The position numbers and the translations under genes are program-made. From a virus, in UHGV virus genome UHGV-0179428: a stretch of 64,000 nucleotides of DNA. One strand, given 5' to 3'. This document shows, piece by piece, positions 3,267 through 57,577 of this stretch (position 1 is the first letter of the stretch; each line of letters begins with the position of its first letter). The notes beneath the pieces are model-generated. The model worked only from the letters and a program-made list of their open reading frames with translations. It searched no databases and had not been told where the DNA came from.

Positions 3267-3312
3267 AAAAGAGTTAGCCAGTAACCCTAACGGGTTACTG
3301 GCTAGTTTATTT
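3267..3312. terminator. Bidirectional intrinsic terminator between convergent genes
   Basis: Stem CCAGTAACCC/GGGTTACTGG (3276-3303) followed by TTTATTTT. Confidence 0.65.
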
Positions 3313-3321
3313 TAGCTGGGT

Positions 3322-3561
3322 TCAATGGGGCCCTGACATTACCACGAGGTGTATAGAGTAGACCATATTTAGCGCATAGGTAGCTGACGAACCTGCTACC
3401 ATCAGACCAAATACTGCAAATGCCTGTACATACCGTGTTTTTCGTAGTGGGAAACCTTGCGAACGTCCGTATTGTTTTATCGCTTGGTAACTCTCGCGGA
3501 TCATTTTATACGTCGCTATCCACGAAAAGAACACAAGTAAATAGTAAATTGGAGCCATCAC
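3322..3561 (-). CDS. small membrane protein, two predicted TM helices (79 aa)
   Basis: ATGA overlap with terminase stop; two hydrophobic segments separated by a basic loop; terminator immediately downstream. Confidence 0.45.
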   Translation of the reverse strand: MMAPIYYLLVFFSWIATYKMIRESYQAIKQYGRSQGFPLRKTRYVQAFAVFGLMVAGSSATYALNMVYSIHLVVMSGPH

Positions 3562-21721: not shown

Positions 21722-24700
21722 TTATTTAAGTGTCGCGGGTAAATCAGGCACAGCCTCCCCATCGAGTATACGCCCGATGAGAATCCCGGCTTGTTCACCT
21801 ACAGCATTCGCGGTACCGATACGTTGGATTGAACCTACGATACGCGCATCGACGGAATCACGACCGAACAACACGTCCAGGTCATCACCATCCTCTGTTT
21901 TGTTATCCCCGTACATGACTTCTTGTACGGTGGTTTTTAGCTGGTTAGCAATAACCATCTTATCCGCAGCGGCCATCTCAACGTCGTGTGTAATAAAGAA
22001 TCGAACACAAAGTGAGTTAAAGGCCAAGGGTACACCTTCGACACGGTAGTCGCCGTTTACACTGCCTGAAACCGGATCGCCCCGCCCGACTGCCAAAGCG
22101 GCTTTACGACGAATTCTGTCGTATTTACGCACCAGTTCAGCAAGGCTTGGTGTCATGTCTTCGGTTTCACCGTGATACACCACTTCGATTTTATCCACGA
22201 TACCACGTACCCCTGCACGAGGTGCGTACGAACTTAAACTTTGCAACGTTGCGGCTGCTTCCTGACTAAAGGCACTCATATCGCCTGTCAAGTCGTCAGT
22301 AAACGTGCATAGGATTGTATCGACGTCTACGTGGTCTCCCTCATTCACGATTTCCAAAAGCATCTGGTTGCTGTTAATCGTCACTTCTTTCAGCTTTGTT
22401 ACCTGCCCCACCATTTTCTTCGCGAACCGTTCAGAAATTGCGTTGGAGTCTTCGATAACTTCTTCAGCTTCTAATAAAGCAACGGTGGCCAGCACCCCGT
22501 TTTTCCAGGAAACTTGAGTAGGATCGTAAATATCAGGTTCAAAGTGTTGCTCGTTGTACGTAATCACTGCTCCGGCCGGGAGCTTGTCACCGGCTTTCCA
22601 GCGTGTTACCAAGGTGTGCGGATAGAAGGTACCTTCGTGGGGGCCGAACCAGCGCCCTAGAGGAAAGGCTTCTTTACTTCCATCTTCGTACGTAATTTCA
22701 ATGTGGTCTTTCGACAGACCAGTAATCTTACCTGCTTTATCAATAACGCGTGCATGTTTCACCGAAGTACGGTGAGCGACGAATTTCTCCTGTTCAGTAC
22801 GATACGGGGTTGTGGTTGCCCCATTACAACTGGTGGCAGAACCTAACTGAATCCCAACGAAGTTTTGACGTTTTGCATCGTCCATTAACGTATCGGGTAC
22901 TAACCCGTCAATAAACGAAAGAGTATCGCTTGGTTTCGGGGTTTTCTCTTCACGCTTAAACGTGGTACCGTCAACGGTGTCAAAACGTGGGTTATTGGTG
23001 ACGAAAGCAGTAATCCCTACGTCGCCGTTATCTACGGTGTTACCCGAGACTATCCCGATATCACTGGGTTGGAACTCACGCGTGTGGTAGACCATCGTTT
23101 TACGATTACGACCACCTGTACCCCCCATCGTAATAACGTCTTTTTCTTTAATTGACTGGATAGGGTTAGCACCAGGTGCCAAAAGTACCGACGGGTCGGA
23201 GTTAATTGCACCCCAAACCATATCTTGCGTCAGTTCGAACTTACGGTTACTGCCCGGTGCGTTATTGTAGTTACGCATCGCTCTGACCATCGCAGTATAG
23301 ATGTGGTAGGCAATCCTCTGATTTCCTAAGAACATCATTTCATCGCCGTTAATCTCTGGTAAAGAGTGGTCAGTTTGTAACAGTTCGTTAGAACGTTCCA
23401 GCAAGCCAATAAAGGTTTCCGGCTCACCCATTTTCCTGAGGATACGTGCGTGCATGTCGTCAACAAACGCGGACCGCATCTGTTTCAGCTCGTTGATGTA
23501 CCGTGGTGTTAGGCCATCTGCTTCACGTAATAAGTTCAGGTAAATGTCTTCGCGGTCTGCTTCTGATTCGGTATAAGCAACCAGGTGTTTGAGATAGCGA
23601 TCCAAACCATGCAGAATCATCTTCTGTTGATCGTTATCGCAAGTAACTAAAAGTTTACAGTCTTGTAGTCGAATAATACTGTCGTAGGCATTCTTATCAA
23701 CACGCTGTCCTGTAGGAACCAACTCGTACTGGATACCGAAATGTTTCAACATTCCCTGGAGTCCAAGATAGAACGAGAAGATAAAACCAAGCGACAAAGA
23801 TTTACCCATCAAAGACAGCTCGGTCATTTCGCGAGGCACTTTCTGGTTATTAAAGCCCAGTACCTCTGCGATAGTTCCCACCGGTTCAACTTTGTTTCCG
23901 TTCACACCGTAAAGCATGGATTTGTCATCCATTGCCAGGATTGTTTCACTACGCGGACGTTTCGCCACTGGTAAAAGTTTGGCAGCATCGGCGTCTCTGA
24001 GCTGCTCGTCGTTAAAGAAGTTAACGGCTTCTTTGTAGTCGAAGTTCCACATATAGCCATTCGCATTAAAGCTGGCAATACGGCGTGCAATCTCCGTATA
24101 CTGGCGCGGCAGATGTTGCGTAGGATCGAACACATTTGCTAAACGTGCATCGGTGACTTCGGTGTTTGTCGGATCAACAGCACGTGTGATAATCGCGTTG
24201 GTTAACCAACGACCGTAATCGTTCGCGACCTTATCACTACGACGGACAAAGTTTTTACCGTAAGCGGTAGTCAGCGCGACTGTATCCGGTGCAACTTTAC
24301 GGATCGGTAAGTCCACACGTTGACGACGCATGGTGTATTCGACGCCGTTAGCTACCCAAGTGCCATCCTCGGTCAAACCCGGGATAGAGAAGCGAACGGT
24401 TGTTGGCTCACCACCGACCGGCTGAACACGTAAAGTGTGGTGTTCGATAGTCCCTGTAACAGAAACTTCTTTTTCCACTGTGTGGTTGTGAACTGCCAGA
24501 CCCAAACGTTGTGAACTGGCGACAGCTGCCAGCACGTCCTTGGTCATCATGGTCTGGTTGTACTGTTTCACCATCTGGTCAGTGACGTTCTCGGCCCATC
24601 CTTCGTCGGTAACAAGCCGCTGAACTTTTTTCGGTTCAGCTTTAACGACGATATCCTTCTCGTGAACAGTAAGCGCTTCCCCGTAGGTTTCTTTCGGGTT

Positions 24701-25888
24701 ATACGGGTTAGGCAGCTGAACGAAACGTTTAGACGATTCTGACAGGAACTGATATGCTTTAGAACTTAAGCGGCCCGCTTCAGCTAAGCGTTGTGCTTCC
24801 TGTTTAATAATTTCGTCGTGCGGAATGACTTTCTCGACAACAATTGTCGTCGGTTTGACGTCTTCCTTCGGTTCTTCAATAACAACGTCTTCTTTTTCAT
24901 CGAAGGTGTTATCGGATTCCACCACAGCGTCATTAACAACGTCGTCATCATCGACAACATCGACAGTTTCTTCTTCGACGTCTTTAAGGAAAACACGTTC
25001 GTCGCCTTCAGGTGTTAGGAATTCTGCTTCATACGCGTTAGACGGTGCTTGCGTCATTACACGCACCAGCGTACGGTAGAACATCCTGGCCATTTGGTCG
25101 TCACTTAAACGGCCGCCGGACGATTTACGCATTTTCTCTACAACACCCATGTTCATGGACGTAAAGCCCGTGTTGTGGGTGAAGATAAAGTTCATTCGTG
25201 ACAGCTGAGTTAAATCCATCCCCGAGAATAAGGAATCGGATTGTTTTCCATAAGCCCAAGCAAACAACTCCAATAGCCACAGCAAGTTGAAGTCCTGGAA
25301 CTTCTCAATCTTGCTCTTAACGCGGTCGTTATAGGTTGTTTGAAACTTCTGGAACGAAGGTAGAGTCGAACCCAGTTCAATAACGAAATAGTTCTGACGC
25401 ATGTATTCTTGCGTGTCGTATTTGAACTGGTTAATCATCAACAGTTGGATGTTACGCAATCTATCGTACCAGGCTAACTGGGTGTCAGGATAGTAGTAGT
25501 GCGATAGCATCGGCGTGTAGTTCTCGACCAGGAGAACTTTTAAGTCTTTACGAACCAGATCGTCTGAGGTAAGACGACGCATCGGGCGGTTTGCACGGTG
25601 GTAGGCAAAGATAGCACGTTCTTGTCCCTGGACAGGTTTGTTACGCGGATGACCGCTAATACCGTCTTCCGGTAATTTAAAGTGGTGACGAACCTGCGCA
25701 GGTTTTTCTAACGGTTGAATAATCTCGAGTGTTGCAGGCGGCGCTAACACCACCTGGTCGAGATCAATGACATGGAGTACAGAACCACGTGGTATCTGTA
25801 GCTTCTCGAGCGGGATAATCCTCGGATTACCAAACTCGTCAGTTTTACGCACCGAGAAGCGTTGGTTAAACTGTTTAATGAGCAGCAT
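21722..25888 (-). CDS. large protein (1388 aa); candidate RNAP subunit partner or virion protein
   Basis: Adjacent to and co-oriented with the beta-prime-like gene; acidic low-complexity stretch; no RNAP beta motif confirmed by eye. Confidence 0.5.
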   Translation of the reverse strand: MLLIKQFNQRFSVRKTDEFGNPRIIPLEKLQIPRGSVLHVIDLDQVVLAPPATLEIIQPLEKPAQVRHHFKLPEDGISGHPRNKPVQGQERAIFAYHRANRPMRRLTSDDLVRKDLKVLLVENYTPMLSHYYYPDTQLAWYDRLRNIQLLMINQFKYDTQEYMRQNYFVIELGSTLPSFQKFQTTYNDRVKSKIEKFQDFNLLWLLELFAWAYGKQSDSLFSGMDLTQLSRMNFIFTHNTGFTSMNMGVVEKMRKSSGGRLSDDQMARMFYRTLVRVMTQAPSNAYEAEFLTPEGDERVFLKDVEEETVDVVDDDDVVNDAVVESDNTFDEKEDVVIEEPKEDVKPTTIVVEKVIPHDEIIKQEAQRLAEAGRLSSKAYQFLSESSKRFVQLPNPYNPKETYGEALTVHEKDIVVKAEPKKVQRLVTDEGWAENVTDQMVKQYNQTMMTKDVLAAVASSQRLGLAVHNHTVEKEVSVTGTIEHHTLRVQPVGGEPTTVRFSIPGLTEDGTWVANGVEYTMRRQRVDLPIRKVAPDTVALTTAYGKNFVRRSDKVANDYGRWLTNAIITRAVDPTNTEVTDARLANVFDPTQHLPRQYTEIARRIASFNANGYMWNFDYKEAVNFFNDEQLRDADAAKLLPVAKRPRSETILAMDDKSMLYGVNGNKVEPVGTIAEVLGFNNQKVPREMTELSLMGKSLSLGFIFSFYLGLQGMLKHFGIQYELVPTGQRVDKNAYDSIIRLQDCKLLVTCDNDQQKMILHGLDRYLKHLVAYTESEADREDIYLNLLREADGLTPRYINELKQMRSAFVDDMHARILRKMGEPETFIGLLERSNELLQTDHSLPEINGDEMMFLGNQRIAYHIYTAMVRAMRNYNNAPGSNRKFELTQDMVWGAINSDPSVLLAPGANPIQSIKEKDVITMGGTGGRNRKTMVYHTREFQPSDIGIVSGNTVDNGDVGITAFVTNNPRFDTVDGTTFKREEKTPKPSDTLSFIDGLVPDTLMDDAKRQNFVGIQLGSATSCNGATTTPYRTEQEKFVAHRTSVKHARVIDKAGKITGLSKDHIEITYEDGSKEAFPLGRWFGPHEGTFYPHTLVTRWKAGDKLPAGAVITYNEQHFEPDIYDPTQVSWKNGVLATVALLEAEEVIEDSNAISERFAKKMVGQVTKLKEVTINSNQMLLEIVNEGDHVDVDTILCTFTDDLTGDMSAFSQEAAATLQSLSSYAPRAGVRGIVDKIEVVYHGETEDMTPSLAELVRKYDRIRRKAALAVGRGDPVSGSVNGDYRVEGVPLAFNSLCVRFFITHDVEMAAADKMVIANQLKTTVQEVMYGDNKTEDGDDLDVLFGRDSVDARIVGSIQRIGTANAVGEQAGILIGRILDGEAVPDLPATLK

Positions 25889-25897
25889 TGCTTAGCC

Positions 25898-27517
25898 TTA
25901 TGGGTTCTTTAATAACGCTTGCGTTGCACGTTTAATCACGTTGTTGATAGGATTGATTTTAAAGTTCCCATCAGAATCGAACCAGTAGTTTTTCGAGTGT
26001 ATCCAATTCCGGTTTTCCTCGAGCGCTTCCTGGGACATAGGCGCGTTAAACGACCCGGTATCGCCGTCGTAGTCACCCCCTAACCCACCTAGGCGTGAGG
26101 GGTGTGGTGCCATCGACTCAACGAAGGTAGGAACCGACCGGTCAGGGTAGCTGATAGCCCCTCGGGGTTTTTCAGTTTCCCAGTCATCTTCCAGTTCTTT
26201 TAAGTATAAAGATGACGTGGTGGTCTCCAATCTTATGGTCGATGAATACGTCGAGCCTCGGCCTGTAACGGGATAACGTGTAACGAAACCGAAATAATCG
26301 TTCCAAAGTTCGTAGCCCGACAAATAAAGCAATTCGACGAGTGTCATACCGTGGACGAACTTTCGGTCAAACGTTTTAGGAAGTTCTTCAATATCGTAGA
26401 ACACCTTAAAATGTTTGGTGTCTTGGTAAACCAACGCAATGTAGTGGGTGTCGTCCAACATAATCGGCTGATGGCGAAGCTCGCGAGCTTCCATTCGGTT
26501 GATTAAGGATTCAATCCCATCGTCGGTGGTAAAGGTGTCGTATACACGACCACCTACTTCCAAGAATTCACGTTTAAGGGTTTTGGTGTTTACGCCGTAA
26601 AGGTTGCCATCACCAGCACGGATGTTACCGAGGTAACGTTCACGTATTTGGTACTGCGCAACAGGGAGTAATGCTTTTAAACCCTGGTATAAACCAATTT
26701 TGGTGTCGGTAGGACGAATAGCGTCTTCACGACCCATGCATTTAGACCCCGTCGAGAACGAGGACAATACGTTACGTGTCCCGTTCATTAATTTACGAGA
26801 CGTCACTTTACGACGTTGGAAACCCCCTTTACCGTCCTGGATGTTAAAGAAATACATCCAGATATCATTGAAGGTTTGTTGAAGTTTCCAGCGTACGGGG
26901 TTAGTTAATTCGACACGGGTTGCTCGGTCAGGGATTGCCCTGGCGAGAGATACCAACCGACGATACATCCCACCGATTTCTTCTTCCTGTTCTCTACCAT
27001 CTTGTCGAATTACTAAATCGCGTAAACCCGCGGGTAACACGAGAACGTATCGACTAAGACTAACGGGACGGAATTTCAAAAAGAAATCCACAGTTTCGTC
27101 ACGTTGTAGGGACTCGTTACGCTTAGGTTTTAAATCGTTATAGTGACTGAGGAAGAAGTTAAAACCGGTGTCTGCGCCTGGGTCTCCCGGCAAGGCCGGT
27201 TCGAAATCTTTTTCTTTTTCGCTCCACGTTGCGTAGCGTTTTCCAGAACAAATTTCTTCGTAGAGTTGTTTGAGTTGGAATAACGCCAAACACACCGTCG
27301 GCGAAATGATATCGAGTTTAATATCGATATAAGAGAAAGTAGAGTCTCGCGCTTCACTCCCCGTGAGTCCAAATATCTCTGTAGAGTAAAGACCTTCGGG
27401 GTGAAAGTTTTTTGTTAACCCCTGGAAAGTATCCGTGGTCGTGACGGGTCGTAATCGCGACACAAGAGACTTGTTTACATTGAGCAGATAAAAGTCAACC
27501 CAATTAAGTTTATTCAC
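25898..27517 (-). CDS. multisubunit RNA polymerase beta-prime-like fragment (N-terminal part)
   Basis: GGDYDGDTGSFNAPMS parallels the catalytic NADFDGDQMAVHVPLS of beta-prime; motif encoded at 26060-26074; the protein ends ~60 aa after the motif, so it is a split subunit. Confidence 0.6.
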   Translation of the reverse strand: MNKLNWVDFYLLNVNKSLVSRLRPVTTTDTFQGLTKNFHPEGLYSTEIFGLTGSEARDSTFSYIDIKLDIISPTVCLALFQLKQLYEEICSGKRYATWSEKEKDFEPALPGDPGADTGFNFFLSHYNDLKPKRNESLQRDETVDFFLKFRPVSLSRYVLVLPAGLRDLVIRQDGREQEEEIGGMYRRLVSLARAIPDRATRVELTNPVRWKLQQTFNDIWMYFFNIQDGKGGFQRRKVTSRKLMNGTRNVLSSFSTGSKCMGREDAIRPTDTKIGLYQGLKALLPVAQYQIRERYLGNIRAGDGNLYGVNTKTLKREFLEVGGRVYDTFTTDDGIESLINRMEARELRHQPIMLDDTHYIALVYQDTKHFKVFYDIEELPKTFDRKFVHGMTLVELLYLSGYELWNDYFGFVTRYPVTGRGSTYSSTIRLETTTSSLYLKELEDDWETEKPRGAISYPDRSVPTFVESMAPHPSRLGGLGGDYDGDTGSFNAPMSQEALEENRNWIHSKNYWFDSDGNFKINPINNVIKRATQALLKNP

Positions 27518-27546: not shown

Positions 27547-30500
27547 ATGGCTAAAAAAGGTAAAGATGATTTCGATGAAATCGATCTTGATAACATGGAC
27601 GACTGGGACGATTTTGATGAGCCCCCTCGTCAACAAGACCAATCGCGTAACCCGGTCATGGACACATTTCGTGCTGCCCGTAAGTCGGCGTTGTCGACTA
27701 TCTGGCCCGAAAACAAACGTGATCAGGTTATTTTAAAAGGGATGCCTAAACCTGCGGCAGAAGCCTACGAAGGCTATCAAAACGTTAAAGCTGCAGGTCA
27801 AGACATTCTGGCCCATACGAAAGACGAGATTGAAAAGACGTCTCGCGTCGTTAAGATGCAAGCGAGACAGTTAGGCCCAACACTGAAACGGTATTTACCG
27901 GAATCCGTAACACGGAAAATCGACAAGTGGGCACGTAACGATCAAATCGACTATGGGAATTACGATCCTAAACAAGCGATGATGGATCGTGAGCTGGACA
28001 GCGTGTTCTCAGGCGCACCGCAAACAGCGGACCAGCAACGTGAAACGCAAGAAGGGATGGTTGAAGACCGCCTGCGTGACACGATTAAGGACATGAAGTC
28101 CGACGCACTGTTCCAGACCGTAATCGGTATTGCAAAAGACGTCAACTTAACGACTAGCTTAAGTCGCGGTGTGTTGTTGAATGTTCAGCGTAAGCAGTTA
28201 GAGCTGCAATATCGGACATTGTTTGCTTTGCAGGATATTGCGAAACTCAAACAAGACGAGTTTGCACGCAACACCCCGGCATTAGAAGCTATCGTTAAGA
28301 ACACGGCACTACCCGACTACGCGAAGGAAGAGTTTTCTGAAATTCGTTGGGCTAATGTAAAACGTAAAGCTGCGGAGTGGATGAACCCCTTACACTACGC
28401 AGATAATTTCATTGGTCAGATTCGCGAAAACGCGAAGAAGAAAATCTCGAACATCTTTAGTGATGGTCGTGGGATTCTAGAACAAGTTCTAGGGATGGCT
28501 CAGGAAGATGACTTTGACATGTCGGACAGCTCATCGTTGTCTCCTGACCGTCGTAACACAAACTCGCGCAATAAAGCGGCAGGTTTTGCAGGTGGTTGGT
28601 TAGCAAAACGTCTCCTACAACCACAGATCGAGCGTCTTCAGAACTGGACCCGTGGCGAGTTGGAGAAAAATCCAGAAGTCATGAAACGCCTTCAGTTGGC
28701 GAAGTATGGTTTTGGAAATTTGTCGTCCATTTCTAACTCAGCAATAGCAGGAGAAACAAGCGGTCCGTTAGCTGATCTGTTTCGACTAATGCACGAATTG
28801 GGATTGGTTAACCCGCTACGTCGCGAAACGTTAGCATTAGACGATCGTTCTGCGGAATCTCTTTCTGCGGCGGCGAAATTCGATCGTAAAGCTTACCTCA
28901 GCATCACTGAAGTTATTCCGACGTTATTGTCCGAGATTAACAAATCTATTCGTCGTGGATATGGTGAACACCACGATCAGGTTTATGACCTGACCACACG
29001 CGGTATGGTGGATCGAAAAGTTATTGGCAATCGTGTACGTAAGGCAGTTGCTAATGACGATCAGCGTAAACGTTTACAGACTTACATCAACGACACTGTC
29101 GACTTTATCGATAAAGATAAAACGCTCGATAGGAAAACACGTCAAGCGTTAGCGGACTACATCGAATCTCGTGCCTCAGAAGGGAAAGCGTTCGATGTAG
29201 GGTCTTTATTGAAAGACCCGATGCACATGTATCGTTACATGAACGCAAACGCTGTGGAAGCGATTCAAGGTGTTTTAGAAGCCCGTTCTGCGGAACTGGT
29301 TGGTGGACACCATGAACTGAGTAATGCGATTTCAAACAAAATCGCCGCTATCCAGTCAACGATTCGTGCACGTCAAGACACGGTTGATGCTGCGTCTGTG
29401 ATTTACGGCGAGAACGCACTTCGTGATTCCGGTATTTTTAAATACGATGCGAAGAATGACATTTTCGAAGTCGATAAGGACATTAACGATCCCTATACGT
29501 TATTTAATGACCTGTCGATGGGTAAGACCCGCTCTGGACGTTCGTTAACACGTGAGCAAGAGATTCAGCGTAAATTGCAAAACGGTTCTGCGCTGGGTGA
29601 TTACTTGCGTCGGATGGGTGCAGGCGCAGAGCCGAGCTTTGAAGACAAAGAACTGTCCAATGTGCGTGGCGGTGGAAAAGGTGGCCGTGGTCGCGGTTTA
29701 AGCGCACGCCAACTCGCTGCGGTACTTTATGGAGAGAAATCCACTAACTTTGTTGAACTATTAAGCAGTCGTCCAGACACGAACGCCGGGTTGGAACAGC
29801 AATTCGACCGTTTGATTGATGCTGTACGTAAACAGCCTGAGTCTAGCACAGTGCAAGATATCCTCAAACACGTTAAGAACATGGATGAGGAAGGTATTCT
29901 CCTAGCCAGTTTAGGCGGTAGTCGTGATGACGGTAACGAAACTGAAAGTTCGAGTGACTCGGGTCGTAAACGTCGTCGTAAACGCAAACGTATTGTGCTA
30001 GGCGAGACAGGCTTGTTACGCCGTTGGGCTGGAGTGCTTTGGGATACCGGTTCAGGTGTAGGGCGTTTTGGTAAGAATCTGTTCCTACGTGGGAAAGATC
30101 GTCTGCAGGCTTTAGGTGGTTTTATCCGTGGGAAATTCTCAGGCGGCTCCTCCGAAGGACCCGGTGTATTTAGCCGACTGAAAGGGTTAGTAACAGGTAC
30201 TCTATCGACAGGTTGGAATTCTGCTGTAGCTTTCGGTAAAGGCGTTTTAGGTGTTCGTGATATTTACGATGAACGTGGCAACGTCGTATTACAAGGAAGT
30301 CGTTTAGAAGCTGGGGAATATTACCAGGCTGACCCGAAAACTGAGAAGCTGATTCAACTTAAAACCCTCGACGACATCAAACTGGGACGTGATATTGTCG
30401 ATGAAGCGGGTAATTTAATCTTAGCTGCTGCTGATTTGGCTGCCGCAGGTAAACTGCGCTTCTACAAAGGTGGTAAAGTTCAAGCGCTTTTCCAGTACAT

Positions 30501-33500
30501 TTCTGGGAAAGCAGGAACGGCGGTAAACAAGGCTGTGACTTTACCGAAGAAACTTCTGGGCTTCATTTCACCTAAAGCGGCTTCGTTGTTCGAGAAAGCA
30601 CGTGAGTGGCTAAATGAGGTTCCAGAGGGCGCAGAGAAAACCCGTTTACAAAGCATGATTTCCCGTGTAACGGGAATGCCAGCGCGTTTGTGGAACAATG
30701 CAAAACGCGGGTTTGAGAAGCTCAAAGAGTTGGCTTCTGATAACCCATTGACACGTTGGTGGCAGAACCGTAAGGAAGGGGGTTCTGGTGGTGGGTTTAG
30801 TGTGTTCTCATGGTCGAATGGCCGTAAAACTAACCACATCTTAATCCGTATCTACAAACTCCTTAACCGGAGATTGCCAGGTGAACCAGAAGATGATACC
30901 TGGACAGAACAGATGGAGCGGAATACGGGAGCCAGCTCAGTTAAAGGATTATTCCAACGTGCTAAAGACATACGCGATGGGTTCCGTGAACATTTTCAGG
31001 GGTTCCGGGATTGGCGTGGTCGGATGCGTGACAGAATGTCCCGTTATCGCAGTGCGGTAGGCGGTCGTCTTTCTCGTTGGGGTGGTGCCGCACGTGGTTG
31101 GTTTGATCGTTTCCGTGGCCGTGCAAGCGATATGGTCGACACTTTCCGTGATCCACGTTTCGATATTGGAACACGTTATCGAATGGAGAGTCGTTTAGCA
31201 GGACGCGATGACGATGTTGCTGAGTTTTATCGTCAACACATCTACGCAAGAGGCAAAGTGTCTAAAACACGTATCATTGATGCGGCAAAAGAAGACTTAG
31301 ACACCGTAACGGATAGCGCTGGACGTGTGATTAATAAAGGGAAACAGAAAGCCCGTAGCGTTGGGTCAGCTTTACTGGAACGCCTGAACCGAATGGTTAA
31401 TCTTCAGGAAATGTCTTGGTTTAACACCATGCGTGATTCTGCGGAAAAAGCAGGTGCTTCGGACGGTTTGTTAAGAACTATGTTCAGTAAGTTCGGCCAA
31501 CGCAATAAGCCGCCTGCCAGTGATGAAAAACGCGATTACTTCCAGTTCTTCCGACGCCGTCGTCGTTCTAAGGAAGAGGAAAAGGCTAAGAAAGAGGCTG
31601 AGAAGAAAGGCGGTAAACGTGGGGTAATGGATTTCCTTAAAGGACTGCCGTTGGTAGGACCAATTGTGAGTATTTTGGGCACAGTGGGTTCAATCTTAGG
31701 TAAAGTTGCAAAATGGGGAATCTTTAAGCCGGTTGGGTTTGCAGGCAAAGCGTTGTGGAACGTTGGTAAGTTTGCTGTGACCCGTTTGGCTGTCCCTGCG
31801 GTGAGTGCTGTCGCGACAGCGGCATCTGCAGTGGTAACTGCGGTTGGCTGGCCGATTATCGGTTTGGTCGCTGCAGGCGCTGCGCTGTCTTGGTTTGCGT
31901 ATAAAACTGCAACCCGTGTAAATGCCCAGTATCTGGATAACATGCGATTGGCACAGTACGGTTTTAGAGACCACGATGAATGGTCTTCCGACGACGGTGC
32001 AAAAGCACGTTATTTAGAAGACAACTTGAAACCGTATATCTCTTATACAGAGAACGGTCAAGCGCAGCTGCGTGGTTTGTCCGGTGACGACGTGAAGAAA
32101 CTGGCCGAAGGGTTTGGTACTAACGTAGAAGACAAAGGCGAAATGCTGGCGTTTACCGCATTTATGCTACAACGTTTTGTGCCGATCTATTTGCGTTGGA
32201 TTACAGCGTTACGTTCAATGGATAACGATATCGCGTTAGCTGACGTCGGTAATCCGTCGAAGGTATCAAAAGCAGACATGCTTACCATCTTTAACAAAAT
32301 GAAGATGACAAAAGATGCACCTGCTTTTAAATCGCTGACGGACCCCCGTAAAGTTAACCAAGGTTGGTTCTCTAAAGCGTGGGATTTCGTGACCTTCACA
32401 CCGGCAGAATTTTTGTCAGGCGAAGAAGTTGTCGAAGCACAAGATCGTGTTTTCCGTTCGATCAACATGCGCCGGGATGATAAGCGTAAGGAAACAACTG
32501 GAACCGGCGCTGTGCCTGAAGGACATAAGGTTGCTTCTGTGGCAGAATCTTCGCAGGTACTCGCGAAGAACGATACCGAACGTAACGAAACTGTTGCTAA
32601 AGCTGAGGGTTGGGAAGACGGTACTGAACAGGTTCAAATTCAAGTTGACTGGAGAGTATTACCTGAGAAGAAAGATTTGGACGCGATGGAATCCGTCCGT
32701 TGGAAATCTTACGGTGTGAAATCTGTTAATGAGACAACACGTACCCTCTTTAGATTGCTTGAGAAAGAAGTGCTGAAAGACACGGATATCAAAAATTGCA
32801 TTTATAAGGGCGATTGGAAGAAAGCAATTTCTGCGATTGCGCCTGATGCAATTGGCGGTCCAAAAGAGGAACGTTACAAGAACTGGTTCTATAATCGATT
32901 CTTACCTGTATTCATGACCTACGTTTATGGTGTAAAACGCTACGTACCTCATGCAGATCCGTTGGATTTGAAACTCACAGGGGGGTTCCTCTATGAGCTG
33001 GCACTGATGATGCGTGGTGCTTACAACATGAAAGGGGGTATCCGTCAGTCTGTGTGGGAAATCGCATTTAACCCGTTAGGAGGCGATGCGAATACTGACG
33101 CAGGTTCGGTGAAGGAAGAATTAGCAACGTTGAAAGAGTTGTCTAAAGAACCCGATCTGGCTGTAAGGAATATGCTCAAAGAAACACCGAGCACACCTAA
33201 GCGTATGACATGGAAATCACCAGCGACAAACTCCAGTGTCCATCAGACGAATGAAGATAGTAAAGAGCGTTATAAGGGAATTAACAGCTACGGCGAAGCT
33301 TCAAACGATGGATACTTACCAAAAGGTGGTCAGTCCTACGGTACGCCAGGTGACTTATCACAAGTTGTTGGCGATATGGGTATAGGGAACTACGCGAAGT
33401 ATTCCACTGGACAATCTGGTATCACCCTCGGTGAGTTACAAGACGGTGATTACAAATCGTTAGTGACTAAATACCCAAGGGAAATGCTCGGTAAACCGAT

Positions 33501-34713
33501 GCAGTCAAATACCGAAGCCATCAAGTCATTGATTATCGACGCGGCAAACATGGTGGGTGTTCCGCCATCCGTTGCGATTGCAATGGCACAAGCAGAATCC
33601 GGCTTACAGTATGGCAACTATCCTGGCGCATCCTCTGGTAGACCGAGAAGCAATAAGATGTCTGCCGCTGGCCTGTTCCAATTTACCAATGGCACTTGGA
33701 ACGGGGTTATGAAGCAATACGCACGAAGATACGGTATTCCACAAACCGATCAGTTCGACCCGTGGGCTAACGCAATCTTAGGCGTTAACTTCATTAGAGA
33801 CAACATCAAGACCGCACAAAAGGATCTTGGTGGAATTGCCCCACCTCCGGCAGTGGCGTACCTATACCACTTCTTAGGTCCAGGTGGTGGTGCTGAGTTC
33901 CTTAAAGCCTGGAAAACCAATCCTAACGGGTCGCCCGACAAAGTGAAGTACATTACACCTGCCGTTCTTAACGGTAATGAAGGTGTTTTCTATATCATGA
34001 ACGGGAAGAAACGCGTTAGGATGCGTACGATCGGTGAGGTTGTCGAGGAACTGAACCGCCGTATGGGCGCGGTTGGAACTAACGAGATTGCAGCAAATCC
34101 TGCGTCTGCGAAAAACATGACAAAAGGGTTATCGCCAGTTCCATCGTCCCCTGCAATTGCTGCTGGCGCAGCTAACGATCCGTCTATTGCTGGTCCGGCA
34201 GATAACCTGCCAGCCGCGAACGAGGCGAATCGTGACTCCGCTTTAGCAGACAAAGGAGCGATGGGCGCTGAAGATATTAAAGCTGCAACGGGTGGTGGTC
34301 CGGCTGTGCCGAGTCCTGGCGGTGATGTCACGCCAAGTGATGCGTCTGTCGTTGTTGAAACGGTGGGTCAAAATGCGCGTGCTGACGGCTTGGGAGAAGA
34401 GGAAGTTGCCAAAGTAAAAGAAGGTGCTAGACAGCAAATGGAGAAAACAGCTCGTCCTGCACCAACGGTAACGTCTGATGCACAGACCGCGCCAACGGTG
34501 AACAGCGGTGATCCGATTAACGTACAACAGCTGGCGGTTGCAAAAGAGTCTGCGGGTTATCTGAGAGAGATTGTTACAATTCTTCGTCAGCGGCCACAGG
34601 CTATGCAGTCCTCCCCAGCGAGTTCGGCAGCTTCTGCCCCGGGGTCAGCATCACGTAACATCGCGGTTGAACAACCTGCCCGCCAACTCGACGTTGGTCG
34701 TAAACGGGCGTAA
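27547..34713 (+). CDS. giant virion/ejection protein with lytic transglycosylase domain (2388 aa)
   Basis: SLT-like AMAQAESGLQYGN...AAGLFQFTNGTW (~33.5-33.9 kb); acidic N-terminus; Arg/Gly-rich segments; hydrophobic TM cluster (~31.6-31.9 kb); Ala/Pro/Ser-rich C-terminus. Confidence 0.7.
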   Translation: MAKKGKDDFDEIDLDNMDDWDDFDEPPRQQDQSRNPVMDTFRAARKSALSTIWPENKRDQVILKGMPKPAAEAYEGYQNVKAAGQDILAHTKDEIEKTSRVVKMQARQLGPTLKRYLPESVTRKIDKWARNDQIDYGNYDPKQAMMDRELDSVFSGAPQTADQQRETQEGMVEDRLRDTIKDMKSDALFQTVIGIAKDVNLTTSLSRGVLLNVQRKQLELQYRTLFALQDIAKLKQDEFARNTPALEAIVKNTALPDYAKEEFSEIRWANVKRKAAEWMNPLHYADNFIGQIRENAKKKISNIFSDGRGILEQVLGMAQEDDFDMSDSSSLSPDRRNTNSRNKAAGFAGGWLAKRLLQPQIERLQNWTRGELEKNPEVMKRLQLAKYGFGNLSSISNSAIAGETSGPLADLFRLMHELGLVNPLRRETLALDDRSAESLSAAAKFDRKAYLSITEVIPTLLSEINKSIRRGYGEHHDQVYDLTTRGMVDRKVIGNRVRKAVANDDQRKRLQTYINDTVDFIDKDKTLDRKTRQALADYIESRASEGKAFDVGSLLKDPMHMYRYMNANAVEAIQGVLEARSAELVGGHHELSNAISNKIAAIQSTIRARQDTVDAASVIYGENALRDSGIFKYDAKNDIFEVDKDINDPYTLFNDLSMGKTRSGRSLTREQEIQRKLQNGSALGDYLRRMGAGAEPSFEDKELSNVRGGGKGGRGRGLSARQLAAVLYGEKSTNFVELLSSRPDTNAGLEQQFDRLIDAVRKQPESSTVQDILKHVKNMDEEGILLASLGGSRDDGNETESSSDSGRKRRRKRKRIVLGETGLLRRWAGVLWDTGSGVGRFGKNLFLRGKDRLQALGGFIRGKFSGGSSEGPGVFSRLKGLVTGTLSTGWNSAVAFGKGVLGVRDIYDERGNVVLQGSRLEAGEYYQADPKTEKLIQLKTLDDIKLGRDIVDEAGNLILAAADLAAAGKLRFYKGGKVQALFQYISGKAGTAVNKAVTLPKKLLGFISPKAASLFEKAREWLNEVPEGAEKTRLQSMISRVTGMPARLWNNAKRGFEKLKELASDNPLTRWWQNRKEGGSGGGFSVFSWSNGRKTNHILIRIYKLLNRRLPGEPEDDTWTEQMERNTGASSVKGLFQRAKDIRDGFREHFQGFRDWRGRMRDRMSRYRSAVGGRLSRWGGAARGWFDRFRGRASDMVDTFRDPRFDIGTRYRMESRLAGRDDDVAEFYRQHIYARGKVSKTRIIDAAKEDLDTVTDSAGRVINKGKQKARSVGSALLERLNRMVNLQEMSWFNTMRDSAEKAGASDGLLRTMFSKFGQRNKPPASDEKRDYFQFFRRRRRSKEEEKAKKEAEKKGGKRGVMDFLKGLPLVGPIVSILGTVGSILGKVAKWGIFKPVGFAGKALWNVGKFAVTRLAVPAVSAVATAASAVVTAVGWPIIGLVAAGAALSWFAYKTATRVNAQYLDNMRLAQYGFRDHDEWSSDDGAKARYLEDNLKPYISYTENGQAQLRGLSGDDVKKLAEGFGTNVEDKGEMLAFTAFMLQRFVPIYLRWITALRSMDNDIALADVGNPSKVSKADMLTIFNKMKMTKDAPAFKSLTDPRKVNQGWFSKAWDFVTFTPAEFLSGEEVVEAQDRVFRSINMRRDDKRKETTGTGAVPEGHKVASVAESSQVLAKNDTERNETVAKAEGWEDGTEQVQIQVDWRVLPEKKDLDAMESVRWKSYGVKSVNETTRTLFRLLEKEVLKDTDIKNCIYKGDWKKAISAIAPDAIGGPKEERYKNWFYNRFLPVFMTYVYGVKRYVPHADPLDLKLTGGFLYELALMMRGAYNMKGGIRQSVWEIAFNPLGGDANTDAGSVKEELATLKELSKEPDLAVRNMLKETPSTPKRMTWKSPATNSSVHQTNEDSKERYKGINSYGEASNDGYLPKGGQSYGTPGDLSQVVGDMGIGNYAKYSTGQSGITLGELQDGDYKSLVTKYPREMLGKPMQSNTEAIKSLIIDAANMVGVPPSVAIAMAQAESGLQYGNYPGASSGRPRSNKMSAAGLFQFTNGTWNGVMKQYARRYGIPQTDQFDPWANAILGVNFIRDNIKTAQKDLGGIAPPPAVAYLYHFLGPGGGAEFLKAWKTNPNGSPDKVKYITPAVLNGNEGVFYIMNGKKRVRMRTIGEVVEELNRRMGAVGTNEIAANPASAKNMTKGLSPVPSSPAIAAGAANDPSIAGPADNLPAANEANRDSALADKGAMGAEDIKAATGGGPAVPSPGGDVTPSDASVVVETVGQNARADGLGEEEVAKVKEGARQQMEKTARPAPTVTSDAQTAPTVNSGDPINVQQLAVAKESAGYLREIVTILRQRPQAMQSSPASSAASAPGSASRNIAVEQPARQLDVGRKRA

Positions 34714-52617: not shown

Positions 52618-52662
52618 AAAAGTAAAGTTACCCCTAGACCACACGGTCTAGGGGTAAACTAT
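52618..52662. terminator. Bidirectional intrinsic terminator
   Basis: Stem CCCCTAGACC/GGTCTAGGGG flanked by T-tracts in both orientations. Confidence 0.7.
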
Positions 52663-53562
52663 TTATTTCCCACGATAAAATCCAGAAATGTAACTCGGCG
52701 CTATCCATCGCCATTCGCGCCAGCGCATTTCTGACATTTTACCACACCATACACGCTTCCAATGCGCACGACGGATATGTGCGGCGCAATAAATCGCCAA
52801 ACAAACCTCGTGTCCTTCCTTGCGCTGCTGCTCTATATCTTCCCATTGTACCGGACTTACATCTAAAACGACAGCTTCACTACGTGGGCGAATTTCTGTA
52901 TCAGGAACATAACGAATGGACCTTCCGCGAAATTCTTTCTTCTCGCGCTCAGTTCGTTTAATTCGCGATGAAAGATATAGCCCGATGTAGACCGCGTCGA
53001 GTAGTCGTTGATTCTCCTTAACCGAAGTAAGGAGCGGCTTTAACTCCACGAAATCGTCATTACTTTTATCGATTGTGTAAATCTCAAACTCCATGTATAC
53101 CGTCTCGTCATGTTCTTCGCATGACATCACAAAGAGAACTTCTTCACCTTCGTAAAGACGTCTTCCGATAAATAACGTGATTGGACTTTCGTCGAGATTT
53201 ACAGTAACCGAGAAAGTAAATGAAGGGATGGTTTCTATCCAGAAGTACGGGATATTTTTTAGTCTCTCAGTTTTTGCTAAGAGCGCCATCAATTCTTCAT
53301 CCGAGATGATTTCAACAGCGGCGTATTGCCATCCTAGTCCCAGGGACTGCTTAATCAGTCTTGGAATCTGTTCGGTAACGCCATACTCACGATAGGTCGG
53401 ATCTTTAACTGGCATAAACGTTACGGGTATTTGACGTTTATGCTCGTTAATGAACCGAATAAAGCGACACTGATCTAATCCGTGAATTGTTTGGTGTGCC
53501 TTTTCTATTTGTTCGCTCATGCGTCTTAGCGCTTTCCCGTAAAGTCTATTATTCGTTGTCAT
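52663..53562 (-). CDS. hypothetical protein, paralog B (299 aa, start adjusted)
   Basis: ATG at 53562 with AGGAG RBS; C-terminal AAHIRRAHWKRVW...W.W...P shared with the neighbouring gene. Confidence 0.5.
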   Translation of the reverse strand: MTTNNRLYGKALRRMSEQIEKAHQTIHGLDQCRFIRFINEHKRQIPVTFMPVKDPTYREYGVTEQIPRLIKQSLGLGWQYAAVEIISDEELMALLAKTERLKNIPYFWIETIPSFTFSVTVNLDESPITLFIGRRLYEGEEVLFVMSCEEHDETVYMEFEIYTIDKSNDDFVELKPLLTSVKENQRLLDAVYIGLYLSSRIKRTEREKKEFRGRSIRYVPDTEIRPRSEAVVLDVSPVQWEDIEQQRKEGHEVCLAIYCAAHIRRAHWKRVWCGKMSEMRWREWRWIAPSYISGFYRGK

Positions 53563-53587
53563 TTTAATACTCCTAAACACTTTTAGC

Positions 53588-54514
53588 TTAATTGTGGGGT
53601 ACGTAGCCACGGACAAAGGTAGGTGGAATCCAACAAAGTTTTCTCTTTCTTTCACCATTTCTAGGGCCGACCCAATATCTGCGCCAGTGAGCGCGACGGA
53701 TGTGGGCAGCCTTAGCATGTTTGATACCCTGCATGGTTTTCAAGTCAGTGTTAAACCCTTTTAGATAATTCACTTGTCCTGGCGTGATATCTATCTTAAC
53801 ATCGCGTTCACGAGGTTTAACGTCGTAACTAATACTACCGTTCTTTTTGATTTCCTTGAACTTAATATCATTAAAAGACTCCCTGTAATTGGGCGGGATT
53901 AGCGTACACAGAAAAATCATCGAAGTAGCGGCTTTGGCCAGAGATAGCCATAGCATCTTTTCTTGTTCGGTCCGTACGCCAGTTGTATAATCGATTTCAA
54001 CAAGCCCGTTTCCAACACTACATATCTCTAACGAGCAGGTGGCGATTGTGGTAACGCCTTCTGTTAACCCGTAATCAGTATTTGTAGCAATTATAATAAA
54101 CCTTCTCTTCCCGTTTTTTCGATAGCCGAGAAAGAAAGTCTCATCCTCTTTACCTACGTCGATTGCTACAGTCCATGTGGGTATAAAGTCCAACCATTCT
54201 TCAGGGAATTTACTGGGCATCTCAGTCTCGAAAACAAGTTCTCTAAGTGCTTGGTTGGATATTAAGGAAGCGCCACCGTATAGCCATCCAATTGCCAATG
54301 TTTGAGCGTGAAGGGAACGGGGATCTTTGAGACCTAACTCGGCGTCGTAGGGTATAAAGGCATTAGTTAAATGCTTACGATTCTTTTTTATCCATTTCGA
54401 GACGGGATTTTCTTTTGTTTGATTTTCTTCCATGACATTTTCTAGATGCTGACACCCCATTTGTCTAAGGCAGTCTTTAATACCTTTTACTTTTTTACTT
54501 TTGTACAAATACAT
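53588..54514 (-). CDS. hypothetical protein, paralog A (308 aa)
   Basis: TAGGAGA RBS; C-terminal AAHIRRAHWRRYW...W...P motif. Confidence 0.5.
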   Translation of the reverse strand: MYLYKSKKVKGIKDCLRQMGCQHLENVMEENQTKENPVSKWIKKNRKHLTNAFIPYDAELGLKDPRSLHAQTLAIGWLYGGASLISNQALRELVFETEMPSKFPEEWLDFIPTWTVAIDVGKEDETFFLGYRKNGKRRFIIIATNTDYGLTEGVTTIATCSLEICSVGNGLVEIDYTTGVRTEQEKMLWLSLAKAATSMIFLCTLIPPNYRESFNDIKFKEIKKNGSISYDVKPRERDVKIDITPGQVNYLKGFNTDLKTMQGIKHAKAAHIRRAHWRRYWVGPRNGERKRKLCWIPPTFVRGYVPHN

Positions 54515-54534: not shown

Positions 54535-54573
54535 TTAAAAATAAAGTAACCCTAGCCGAAGCTAGGGCGTGTA
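54535..54573 (-). terminator. Intrinsic terminator
   Basis: Stem CCCTAGC-CGAA-GCTAGGG followed by a T-tract on the minus strand. Confidence 0.65.
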
Positions 54574-55062
54574 TTAGTCGATTTTGACGTAATCTGGATA
54601 ATTGGCTTTTAACCACTCCCATAGTTGCAGAGCAAGTTGGTTTTCGTTACGCTTGATGATTTCTACGATTTCGTTCAAGAGAGAGTCTTCAACCCAAATC
54701 CGGGTATAAAATTTTTCCCATTCCGGTTCTGTATAAGGGACTAGCGGAGTAGGGAATCGACCCATGTGGTACGCATCAGAAACTTTCTTTAAGAACTCGT
54801 TGCGACCATGGCGTAGACGTTGCCGAACGTCTGTTTCTGTTATGCGCTTGCTTGATGGATCGAAGAAGTCAAGTATGATAAATATGTATCCAAATAAGCT
54901 CTGAGAAGAAAAGTAGGACGCGGCGTAGTCCGCCATCCAGGGAGTGTCTACAACCAACGGAGTCAACTTTTCTTCAATTTCTTTTCTTACACGTGTTTCG
55001 TTATTGAGAAATTCATGTACGAAATCGGTGTCACGAATATCGAAGATATGATTTAAGTTCAT
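54574..55062 (-). CDS. hypothetical protein (162 aa)
   Basis: ORF only. Confidence 0.5.
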   Translation of the reverse strand: MNLNHIFDIRDTDFVHEFLNNETRVRKEIEEKLTPLVVDTPWMADYAASYFSSQSLFGYIFIILDFFDPSSKRITETDVRQRLRHGRNEFLKKVSDAYHMGRFPTPLVPYTEPEWEKFYTRIWVEDSLLNEIVEIIKRNENQLALQLWEWLKANYPDYVKID

Positions 55063-55063
55063 T

Positions 55064-55588
55064 TTATTGTCCTAATATTGGGGAGAGCCTGTCTGCGGTG
55101 ACTAACAACGCTTTTGTAATTTCGTGGTTGGTCTCTTTTAGGATGGCGCAGCAGAGAGTGGTATAAACCTCGATTGCTAACGCGATTTCTTGTTCAGTCA
55201 GGCACGGTTCGGTACCGTCAATCCCGTAACGTTGCGCCGCATACTCAATTTCAAGTTTCAAACGTTTTCGTAGTGCTTCGTCATCAGTTAAACGCGTACA
55301 CGCCCGATCGAAACGTCTATTGTAAGCCTCGATCTTGTGGACAATTTCACGTCGCAGTTGGTCGACATTTACGTTATCATCAAGAGTGATGGTGACGTTG
55401 TCAACTAAACAGTAATGCACTGTGTGTCGTAAGTTGTGTAATGTGGCGACAGTAACGACCCGCTCCTGATGGTCGCTAAAGCCGTGAGCACCACAGAGCT
55501 TGCGTGCAACTGCGCCGGAGATTTTCTCCTCTAGCGCTATCGGTGTGGCAATGGTTGTTTTCTTACGAAGCTGAATTAAAATATCCAC
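55064..55588 (-). CDS. hypothetical protein (174 aa)
   Basis: ORF only. Confidence 0.5.
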   Translation of the reverse strand: MDILIQLRKKTTIATPIALEEKISGAVARKLCGAHGFSDHQERVVTVATLHNLRHTVHYCLVDNVTITLDDNVNVDQLRREIVHKIEAYNRRFDRACTRLTDDEALRKRLKLEIEYAAQRYGIDGTEPCLTEQEIALAIEVYTTLCCAILKETNHEITKALLVTADRLSPILGQ

Positions 55589-55590
55589 GT

Positions 55591-56133
55591 TTATACTCCT
55601 TTAGGTTGACCGTATTTTGATGACAGGTAGATGAGCTCAGCATGGCAGATTTTCTCAACTAACCCGAGTGACTCAAGGAAAATATCCCGGATACGAGACA
55701 TTGTTTCGTTGGTAAGAATATCGCTCCAACACGTTGTGTCTATTATATCCGTCGTTGAAGATTGTCGCTGCAATATGGCGACATACACTTCATCGAGGGT
55801 ATCTGGAGCATTATTCTGTAAGTAATGCGCGGCATGTAGAAAGGCTTTCTCAAGAATCAGGTGAATATCCGTATCGGGATCAGTTACCCGCACTAAATGT
55901 GGGTATGTCATGGCCGAATGGATTTTTCGTTCTAACTGTTCAATGAGATTATTCACCATCGCTTCTGAATCCAGGATAGTAATTTCAACCCCACTGTGTT
56001 CTTCAGAAATCTTGTTCTCATGTACTGCTATCGCGTCGTGCAGTTCAAACGCAACGCGGCTACGCATCTCACTTAACAGTTTGTTTAATTTGCCCCGTGA
56101 CTCACTGAGTGAGAAATCGATAAGTATTTTCAT
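55591..56133 (-). CDS. hypothetical protein (180 aa, start adjusted)
   Basis: ATG at 56133 preferred over the GTG at 56163. Confidence 0.45.
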   Translation of the reverse strand: MKILIDFSLSESRGKLNKLLSEMRSRVAFELHDAIAVHENKISEEHSGVEITILDSEAMVNNLIEQLERKIHSAMTYPHLVRVTDPDTDIHLILEKAFLHAAHYLQNNAPDTLDEVYVAILQRQSSTTDIIDTTCWSDILTNETMSRIRDIFLESLGLVEKICHAELIYLSSKYGQPKGV

Positions 56134-56134
56134 G

Positions 56135-56872
56135 TTAATAGCCCTGATAAATGATGTCGTCACGGTCTTTACGTAACTGGCAGTATGTTACGTCAGCACC
56201 GTTAGGGATTTGTACGCCAGCGTCTTCAAGATAAATAACACCAGTCTGATTACAGAAATAAAAAGACCACAAGTACGGATTGCCTTGACAACTGTTTTCA
56301 CGATGATCGAAGGGCCAATAACCACGATACAATTCGTCGTAATCACCACGCTCGATACCAAAAGCAACCATTTCTTTTTCCCACAATCTGCTTTCGGCGT
56401 CGTAAATCGAAAACCAGAAACCGACGAGGTTCTTTGTCCGTTTAACGTTCATTAAGTCGTTATAAATGGGGAAGAGTGCTTTATTGAAACTTTCTAACAT
56501 CTCTGGAGAGAGTAGAAAGTTCACGTAGTATTCTAGCCATTGATAAACGGCTTCCCAGACATCTTCAGAAGAGAAATGCTCGAATACGGCGTCATCACAA
56601 TCGTAGTTATCGAAGACCCCTGAGAGATCTATTATGACGTCGCGAAGGTCAAAGTTTCGGTTGGTATTGACAGCCTCAATAACTTCGGAGATAAGACGAG
56701 TAAAGACGTTTGTGCAGGCAGTCTGTGCGGTATAAAAGAATTCTCCTTGTACGGTTGACCACTTTGGGTCCTTCAAATGTTCATTGAAGTATTGTGGCCA
56801 AATTTTATAAAAGATTCCCTCGAACAACGAGGGATTGATACGTTGTAATTGAGGGACATAAACTTTCAGCAT
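56135..56872 (-). CDS. hypothetical protein (245 aa)
   Basis: Recurring intergenic motif upstream. Confidence 0.5.
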   Translation of the reverse strand: MLKVYVPQLQRINPSLFEGIFYKIWPQYFNEHLKDPKWSTVQGEFFYTAQTACTNVFTRLISEVIEAVNTNRNFDLRDVIIDLSGVFDNYDCDDAVFEHFSSEDVWEAVYQWLEYYVNFLLSPEMLESFNKALFPIYNDLMNVKRTKNLVGFWFSIYDAESRLWEKEMVAFGIERGDYDELYRGYWPFDHRENSCQGNPYLWSFYFCNQTGVIYLEDAGVQIPNGADVTYCQLRKDRDDIIYQGY

Positions 56873-56908
56873 TTTAATAACTCCAATGGTGTTACACCTG
56901 GATAATAT

Positions 56909-57577
56909 CTATCTAAGAATATTTTTAGCGAAAAAAGGATCGACTGTAAACTCCTTCACCTGTGAGTCATAACCCGAATGTATCTGATCGCTACTGAGCA
57001 AATACTGGTCTAAATCGTGCGGAAGAATCCAAGAATCACCTTGCTTAAAAATACCATAATCTGTTGTTCCAGAGGAAAAAACGATTTCCTCTGGAGACGA
57101 ATAGATGTGGCGTAAGGCAAGATCGGACGGCTTTAACACGATTAATCTAACGGGATGTTGACTGACTGCCTCTTTAATAAACTGTTCACGATTAAACCAA
57201 ATTATTTTTTCGGGGTAAGTTTCGAATTCAGCCCATGTCCGCGTGATAACTAATTTGGAAATCTTTCTCAATTCTTCAGAATGCTCTGCGTAGCCGATAC
57301 ACTCCTTGCGCACTTCATGATTTTCTACCGATGCTGTGAATTTTTGGAATAGGTGTTGTTGGAAAAAGCCGTTCTCCGGGATATCACAACCCGCGTTGTA
57401 TAGTGCAATGATCTCCCACAACAACGAAAGAGAAAACACAAATGCTAACTTTTCCACAACTTCCCAATCTTCGGAGTAAGGGGCTTTAAAGCCCCAATAC
57501 TGCCGTGCGTTATACATAAAGTGAGTTTGTAAAAACCGAGGGGCTTTTGACAAGACCTCACTATAAACGATCAGCAT
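56909..57577 (-). CDS. hypothetical protein (222 aa)
   Basis: ORF only. Confidence 0.5.
   Translation of the reverse strand: MLIVYSEVLSKAPRFLQTHFMYNARQYWGFKAPYSEDWEVVEKLAFVFSLSLLWEIIALYNAGCDIPENGFFQQHLFQKFTASVENHEVRKECIGYAEHSEELRKISKLVITRTWAEFETYPEKIIWFNREQFIKEAVSQHPVRLIVLKPSDLALRHIYSSPEEIVFSSGTTDYGIFKQGDSWILPHDLDQYLLSSDQIHSGYDSQVKEFTVDPFFAKNILR

Follow-up and report, generated by a model that had tools for sequence, protein, structure and literature searches.

The 64,000-nucleotide stretch of the virus genome UHGV-0179428 analyzed here (the window) carries two adjacent minus-strand genes, A and B, which almost certainly belong to the AcrVA2/FinQ family. AcrVA2 is an anti-CRISPR protein of a Moraxella bovoculi prophage (PDB 7CI1/7CI2), and FinQ is a fertility inhibition protein of IncI and F-like plasmids. 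A, B, and their orthologs are all named “hypothetical protein” in the databases. By analogy with AcrVA2, we think it fairly likely that A and B, as deeply divergent members of this family, constitute a two-gene accessory unit that silences target mRNAs.

Assignment of A and B to the AcrVA2/FinQ family

The first lead was a phmmer search of A against PDB sequences, which aligned residues 259-302 of A with residues 275-317 of AcrVA2 (7ci1; E = 4.5e-4). The aligned tails read HIRRAHWRRYWVG...WIPPTFV in A and HIRRGHWHGYWQG...WQPAVFV in AcrVA2. The same search with B by itself returned only noise, and a narrow profile of 7 sequences matched AcrVA2 weakly and in the tail only (E = 0.035). Word-seeded searches reached only 6 proteins, all from close relatives, and an exhaustive HMMER search with a profile of the window lineage was therefore needed. 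This search recovered at least 2650 cluster representatives (50% identity) at E ≤ 1e-3, 653 of them at E ≤ 1e-10; most were 300 to 350 amino acids long and were matched over most of their length. A profile (A3) made from a 98-sequence family alignment of these representatives matched AcrVA2 over its full length, with profile positions 11-318 aligned to chain positions 9-319 (E = 1.6e-45).

To prevent circularity, we built the profile again after removing the window lineage and the jumbo-phage clade. This window-free profile recognized A (E = 7.4e-24), B (E = 1.3e-14), AcrVA2 (E = 7.9e-48), and FinQ (E = 3.4e-60), and it matched no open reading frame (ORF) of the window besides A and B. In an hhalign comparison, the window-lineage profile matched FinQ of an IncI plasmid with 98% probability (E = 1.4e-13 over 219 columns). 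Both proteins also match phrog_6160 in PHROGs (A, E = 2.4e-36; B, E = 1.5e-19), which is without an assigned function. Scans of the two proteins with local copies of Pfam-A, NCBIfam, and PADLOC yielded no meaningful match. The close homologs all carry a precomputed match to PF26125.1, an entry on which a literature search found nothing.

Members of the family are present on 594 plasmids, where they are mostly annotated as finQ, and in 299 viral contigs. With their occurrence in a jumbo phage, at a slot that holds zero, one, or two copies, this is the distribution of an accessory gene on mobile elements. The family, which an earlier note made from the sequence of this DNA did not recognize, is thus not a housekeeping one. 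On an IncI plasmid (L004), the finQ coding sequence is annotated at 2630-3409 (780 nt), within an ORF at 2318-3409 that encodes 363 amino acids. Because the family profile aligns from residue 13 of this longer ORF, the RefSeq start of finQ may have been set too far downstream.

A and B were 25% identical over approximately 286 columns in a BLASTP comparison (E = 2e-22). The similarity spans their whole length, and they are therefore paralogs throughout, not unrelated bodies with a common motif. This result bears out the earlier note, which had described two tandem minus-strand genes of 308 and 299 amino acids, correctly in both position and size, as paralogs with divergent bodies and near-identical C-terminal strings. 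These strings are found in both proteins, and the alignment excludes a chance match. A profile search for the further paralogs that the note thought worth seeking found no third copy among the 678 six-frame ORFs of the window. The identity between A and B (21-25%) corresponds to the same distance that separates either of them from single-copy homologs in other phage genera, which indicates, as far as sequence distances can tell, that the split is old or that the copies were acquired separately. In a neighbor-joining tree, the A-type, B-type, and single-copy jumbo-phage proteins formed one clade, apart from FinQ and AcrVA2.

Predicted fold, conserved tail, and variable body

An AlphaFold2 (AF2) model of A built from the 98-sequence alignment had a predicted local distance difference test score (pLDDT) of 84.6 and a predicted template modeling score (pTM) of 0.81. 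When this model was compared with the PDB by Foldseek, the only significant matches were to AcrVA2 (7ci2_A, E = 1.6e-9; 7ci1_B, E = 3.1e-8). An earlier model built from 8 sequences had a pLDDT of 64.9 and no significant Foldseek match, AcrVA2 included; the lack of an AcrVA2 match at that stage is a problem of model quality. The model consists of a helical N-terminal part (residues ∼12-80), a central beta-sheet domain with a long helix (∼81-263, most variable at 121-200), and a C-terminal domain of four short strands (271-301) that contains H271-I-R273-R-A-H276-W277. This predicted three-domain fold agrees with the published account of the N-terminal, middle, and C-terminal domains (NTD/MID/CTD) of AcrVA2.

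To establish residue equivalences, AcrVA2 was added to the family alignment. H286, R288, H291, W79, and D89 of AcrVA2 correspond to H271, R273, H276, W77, and N87 of A and to H262, R264, H267, W78, and D88 of B, respectively. B therefore carries the motif as H262-I-R264-R-A-H267-W and retains both W78 and D88. H271, R273, and H276 (A numbering) are invariant across the family alignment (98-99 sequences), and W77, R274, W277, W281, G283, W295, and P298 are conserved in at least 90% of its 98 sequences. These are residues of consequence in AcrVA2: the substitutions H286A, R288A, and H291A abolish its activity with binding retained, the same three residues are required for the translation-dependent loss of Cas12a mRNA, and W79A and D89A weaken activity (Marino et al., bioRxiv 10.1101/2022.11.29.518452). 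The same preprint reports that the C-terminal residues are conserved across ∼1800 AcrVA2 orthologs, which are found on plasmids and in “megaphages,” and that FinQ, a homolog of AcrVA2, lowers F-plasmid transfer mRNA. The tail that the earlier note had singled out is thus a conserved functional module, in which mutation of the H-x-R-x-x-H residues abolishes AcrVA2 activity; the nucleic acid or metal binding that the note had proposed for it stays a suggestion.

The remainder of each protein diverges rapidly. In comparison with a relative from Enterobacter, protein identity was 69% for A and 63% for B, versus 96% for UvsX and 92% and 91% for the neighboring 251- and 99-amino-acid proteins. The amino acid divergence of A and B is thus 4 to 10 times that of the neighboring core genes, and it is highest in the central domain. 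Within A, residues 121-210 were only 37-53% identical to the Enterobacter relative, and residues 271-300 were 100% identical. In the latter segment the nonsynonymous divergence (dN) was 0 while the proportion of synonymous differences (pS) was 0.68, which indicates strong purifying selection and not recent exchange. Column entropy, calculated from ∼30 unique orthologs of each type, peaked at residues 121-200 of A and 141-180 of B and was near zero over residues 221-308 of A. Two AcrVA2 residues that contact a Cas12a peptide in 7CI2, D129 and D195, flank the variable stretch in the alignment, and for this reason the stretch is plausibly the target-binding surface.

Proposed silencing function and competing explanations

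We propose, with moderate confidence and on the model of AcrVA2, that each protein uses its variable body to bind a particular segment of a target polypeptide while the polypeptide is leaving the ribosome. The C-terminal HxRxxH module, which is constant, would then trigger the loss of the bound target's mRNA and so prevent synthesis of the target. Since A and B have almost entirely different bodies, the two proteins most likely act on different targets. These could be host defense proteins, host factors, or products of rival mobile elements. More tentatively, the pair may represent differently “programmed” nascent-polypeptide silencers, in which a fast-changing central domain would select a different host or rival protein for each copy and whose alleles are swapped between phage backbones like specificity cassettes.

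Several points weigh against this proposal. The mechanism of AcrVA2 is known solely from a preprint and meeting reports, and the step that leads from HxRxxH to mRNA loss is obscure even for AcrVA2 (bioRxiv 10.1101/2022.11.29.518452). Silencing by A, B, or any jumbo-phage member of the family is argued by analogy with AcrVA2. The model of A reaches a global TM-score of only 0.45 against 7ci1/7ci2, with 11-17% identity, and the predicted structure covers A only, not B. A has N87 at the position of D89, whose replacement by alanine moderately lowers AcrVA2 function; N is found at this position in 11 of 99 family sequences. Finally, the analysis did not establish positive selection on the variable domain. 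The ratio of dN to synonymous divergence (dN/dS) is ∼0.2 overall and does not exceed 0.62 in any block of 30 residues, and saturation of synonymous sites in the comparison of the window with its nearest relative makes the dN/dS test uninformative. The earlier note had viewed the pair as a tandem duplication under diversifying selection. This view is partly supported: fast amino acid divergence with a central peak is indeed present and suggests diversifying selection, and the distance between the copies points to an old split or to separate acquisition.

Alternatively, the mechanism could be the same and the class of target different, with A and B silencing genes of a coresident plasmid, a prophage, or a coinfecting phage, as FinQ acts against the F plasmid. 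We consider this somewhat unlikely, and there is evidence in its favor. The bodies of A and B fit FinQ, in the hhalign comparison described above, better than they fit AcrVA2, which was matched in the tail only; FinQ has the C-terminal motif in common with A and B (PHIRRGHWHTYW) and is reported to lower the mRNA of a rival element's genes, namely, those for F transfer. The relatives of the phage persist in isolates as ∼222-kb circular replicons, which would meet plasmids there. FinQ differs from A and B in being plasmid-borne and single-copy and is 16-22% identical to them, and its target, the F transfer operon, would matter only to a phage that is in competition with plasmids. Nothing in the sequence separates this alternative from an antidefense role, and thus the sequence cannot discriminate between host defenses and rival mobile elements as targets.

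It is very unlikely that A and B are genuine anti-CRISPRs against Cas12a, even though they share both a family and the essential residues with AcrVA2. Most family members, including most AcrVA2 orthologs, occur in bacteria that lack Cas12a (Marino et al., bioRxiv 10.1101/2022.11.29.518452). AcrVA2 recognizes the N-terminal LSKT region of Cas12a and makes contacts to a PID peptide through E98, D129, and D195. Identity to AcrVA2 is just 13-18% in the bodies of A and B, and two of these contacts, D129 and D195, align to gaps in both proteins. In addition, the relatives of the phage were found with Salmonella, Escherichia coli, Shigella, Enterobacter, and Erwinia. Those hosts carry type I CRISPR systems and are not known for type V-A ones. 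AcrVA2 also has a different setting: its gene adjoins acrVA1 in a Moraxella prophage, whereas A and B are a tandem pair in a lytic-type jumbo phage of enterobacteria.

That one or both copies are functionless, decaying duplicates would fit their faster divergence relative to their neighbors, and we rejected this highly improbable reading as poorly supported: both ORFs are intact and have good Shine-Dalgarno sites, the low dN/dS and the dN of 0 in the tail of A argue against it, every invariant family residue is kept in A and B, at least eight related loci retain the pair, and no frameshifted or truncated allele was found among ∼60 orthologs.

Some SPN3US/Asesino-like jumbo phages are in use for biocontrol or have been proposed for it, and assignment to the AcrVA2/FinQ family supplies a testable function for an accessory locus that recurs among phages of this type. 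Both the family with its motif and its occurrence in large phages or “megaphages” are already published (Marino et al., bioRxiv 10.1101/2022.11.29.518452; Al-Shayeb et al.), and the gain is incremental because “megaphage” homologs had previously been noted. What is new is the assignment of these “hypothetical proteins,” a hot spot with zero, one, or two copies and a deeply divergent tandem pair, and the exchange of alleles. The mechanism of AcrVA2, in which recognition of a nascent polypeptide leads to mRNA loss, is unusual in bacteria and so far has one target, Cas12a. With its unrelated central domains, many natural alleles, and allele swapping, a tandem pair offers material for finding new targets and for studying how specificity is encoded. 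If the more tentative reading of differently “programmed” silencers is correct, the mechanism of AcrVA2 would be a general, modular counterdefense or host-takeover tool of lytic jumbo phages that extends beyond CRISPR, and hundreds of natural alleles would provide a ready-made library in which the encoding of specificity could be mapped.

Layout of the locus and an accessory hot spot in related phages

The features of the locus are listed in Table 1.

Table 1. Features of the A and B locus; coordinates refer to the window unless another locus is named
Feature	Coordinates	Strand	Description
Gene A	53588..54514	minus	308 amino acids; assigned to the AcrVA2/FinQ family
Gene B	52663..53562	minus	299 amino acids; second protein assigned to the AcrVA2/FinQ family, 25% identical to A
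A-B spacer	53563..53587	minus	25 nt; AGGAG Shine-Dalgarno site for B, no terminator
Hairpin upstream of A	54549..54568	minus	terminator-like, G+C-rich, with T-run; just upstream of A and followed by A's Shine-Dalgarno site
Hairpin downstream of B	52628..52657		13-bp stem, T-runs on both strands (bidirectional terminator-like); between B's end and the convergent 251-amino-acid gene
Cassette indel	L002 5699-5729 (SPN3US) versus L005 2728-3735 (EC001)		a single AcrVA2-like gene, preceded by a hairpin of its own

Because the spacer contains a Shine-Dalgarno site and no terminator, A and B are probably cotranscribed. The 299-amino-acid start of B was taken as real since its ATG has AGGAG upstream and is also the position at which the orthologs P0004 and P0005 start. 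The longest reading frame available to B, which has 351 amino acids and extends up to 53718, overlaps A and was rejected as the gene. The order of hairpin and Shine-Dalgarno site upstream of A is also found ahead of the single-copy cassette of phage EC001. Phages of this kind transcribe with their own RNA polymerases, and the sigma-70 promoter scan upstream of A, which found nothing, is uninformative for this reason.

The window derives from a phiKZ-like jumbo myovirus, as judged from split RNA polymerase beta subunits, a large terminase, a tail sheath, a thymidylate synthase, and a UvsX-like recombinase. Salmonella phage SPN3US and Erwinia phage Asesino are distant relatives, to which it shows ∼73% nucleotide identity in the UvsX block. 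The closest relatives that have been sequenced are circular replicons of ∼222 kb, which are filed as plasmids of Enterobacter ludwigii (83% identity) and E. coli 98232. Both replicons are deposited in complete genomes of these bacteria as nonmobilizable “plasmids,” the former from a gull cloaca (NZ_CP134650.1) and the latter from human urine (NZ_CP173450.1). Many isolate assemblies of Salmonella, E. coli, and Shigella likewise contain orthologs of A and B, on contigs of 220-226 kb. Close orthologs number several hundred, in four clusters at 90% identity. The replicons and contigs suggest a carrier state, pseudolysogeny, or an episomal existence for a phiKZ-like phage, or else that phage genomes are routinely misfiled as plasmids.

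At the same syntenic slot, SPN3US has no copy, EC001 and Asesino have one, and the window, the Enterobacter replicon, and the E. coli replicon have two. The pair is present in the window, these two replicons, and five IMG/VR contigs, which makes at least eight related loci. EC001 belongs to the same species as SPN3US and carries a 1008-bp cassette (hairpin, Shine-Dalgarno site, and gene) where SPN3US has 31 bp, between flanks that are 97-98.5% identical; no obvious direct repeats were found in the inspected junction sequences. Such clean presence and absence, together with a His- and Arg-rich motif, might suggest that A and B are selfish homing-type nucleases whose motif serves as a DNA-cutting active site and thereby spreads the cassette, a reading that we hold to be highly improbable and rejected as poorly supported.

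Allele A at the slot has also moved independently of its surroundings. Between the E. coli and Enterobacter replicons, the 251- and 99-amino-acid proteins are 100% identical and B is 99% identical, but A is only 73% identical; the A allele of the E. coli replicon is instead 93% identical to A of the window. Because the identities of A conflict with the near-identical backbones, A has been swapped by recombination, independently of the surrounding backbone.

The minus-strand neighbors of A at 54574-57577, which encode 162, 174, 190, 245, and 222 amino acids and are all of unassigned function, likewise diverge quickly. The 190- and 222-amino-acid proteins are 62% and 57% identical to those of the Enterobacter relative, and the 162-amino-acid protein is 46% identical to that of the E. 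coli replicon. As these small neighbors diverge fast while core genes are 91-96% identical, the AcrVA2-like pair evidently forms part of a larger accessory block of variable genes located between RNase H and UvsX.

Multicopy loci recur in the AcrVA2/FinQ family, since unrelated contigs carry two family ORFs. One such IMG/VR viral contig has two full copies within ∼1-2 kb (L064, 1226-4345), and others have one full copy and a fragment of ∼118 amino acids within a similar distance of ∼1-2 kb (L072, 3206-5597; also L078-L081, L083, and L084).

Elsewhere in the window, a plus-strand ORF at 27547-34713 encodes 2388 amino acids and matches the tail-fiber family phrog_3201, with a transglycosylase-like segment at residues 1986-2234. 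On the minus strand at 21722-27517, adjacent ORFs of 1388 and 539 amino acids match phage RNA polymerase beta-subunit families, in keeping with the split multisubunit RNA polymerase typical of phiKZ-like phages.
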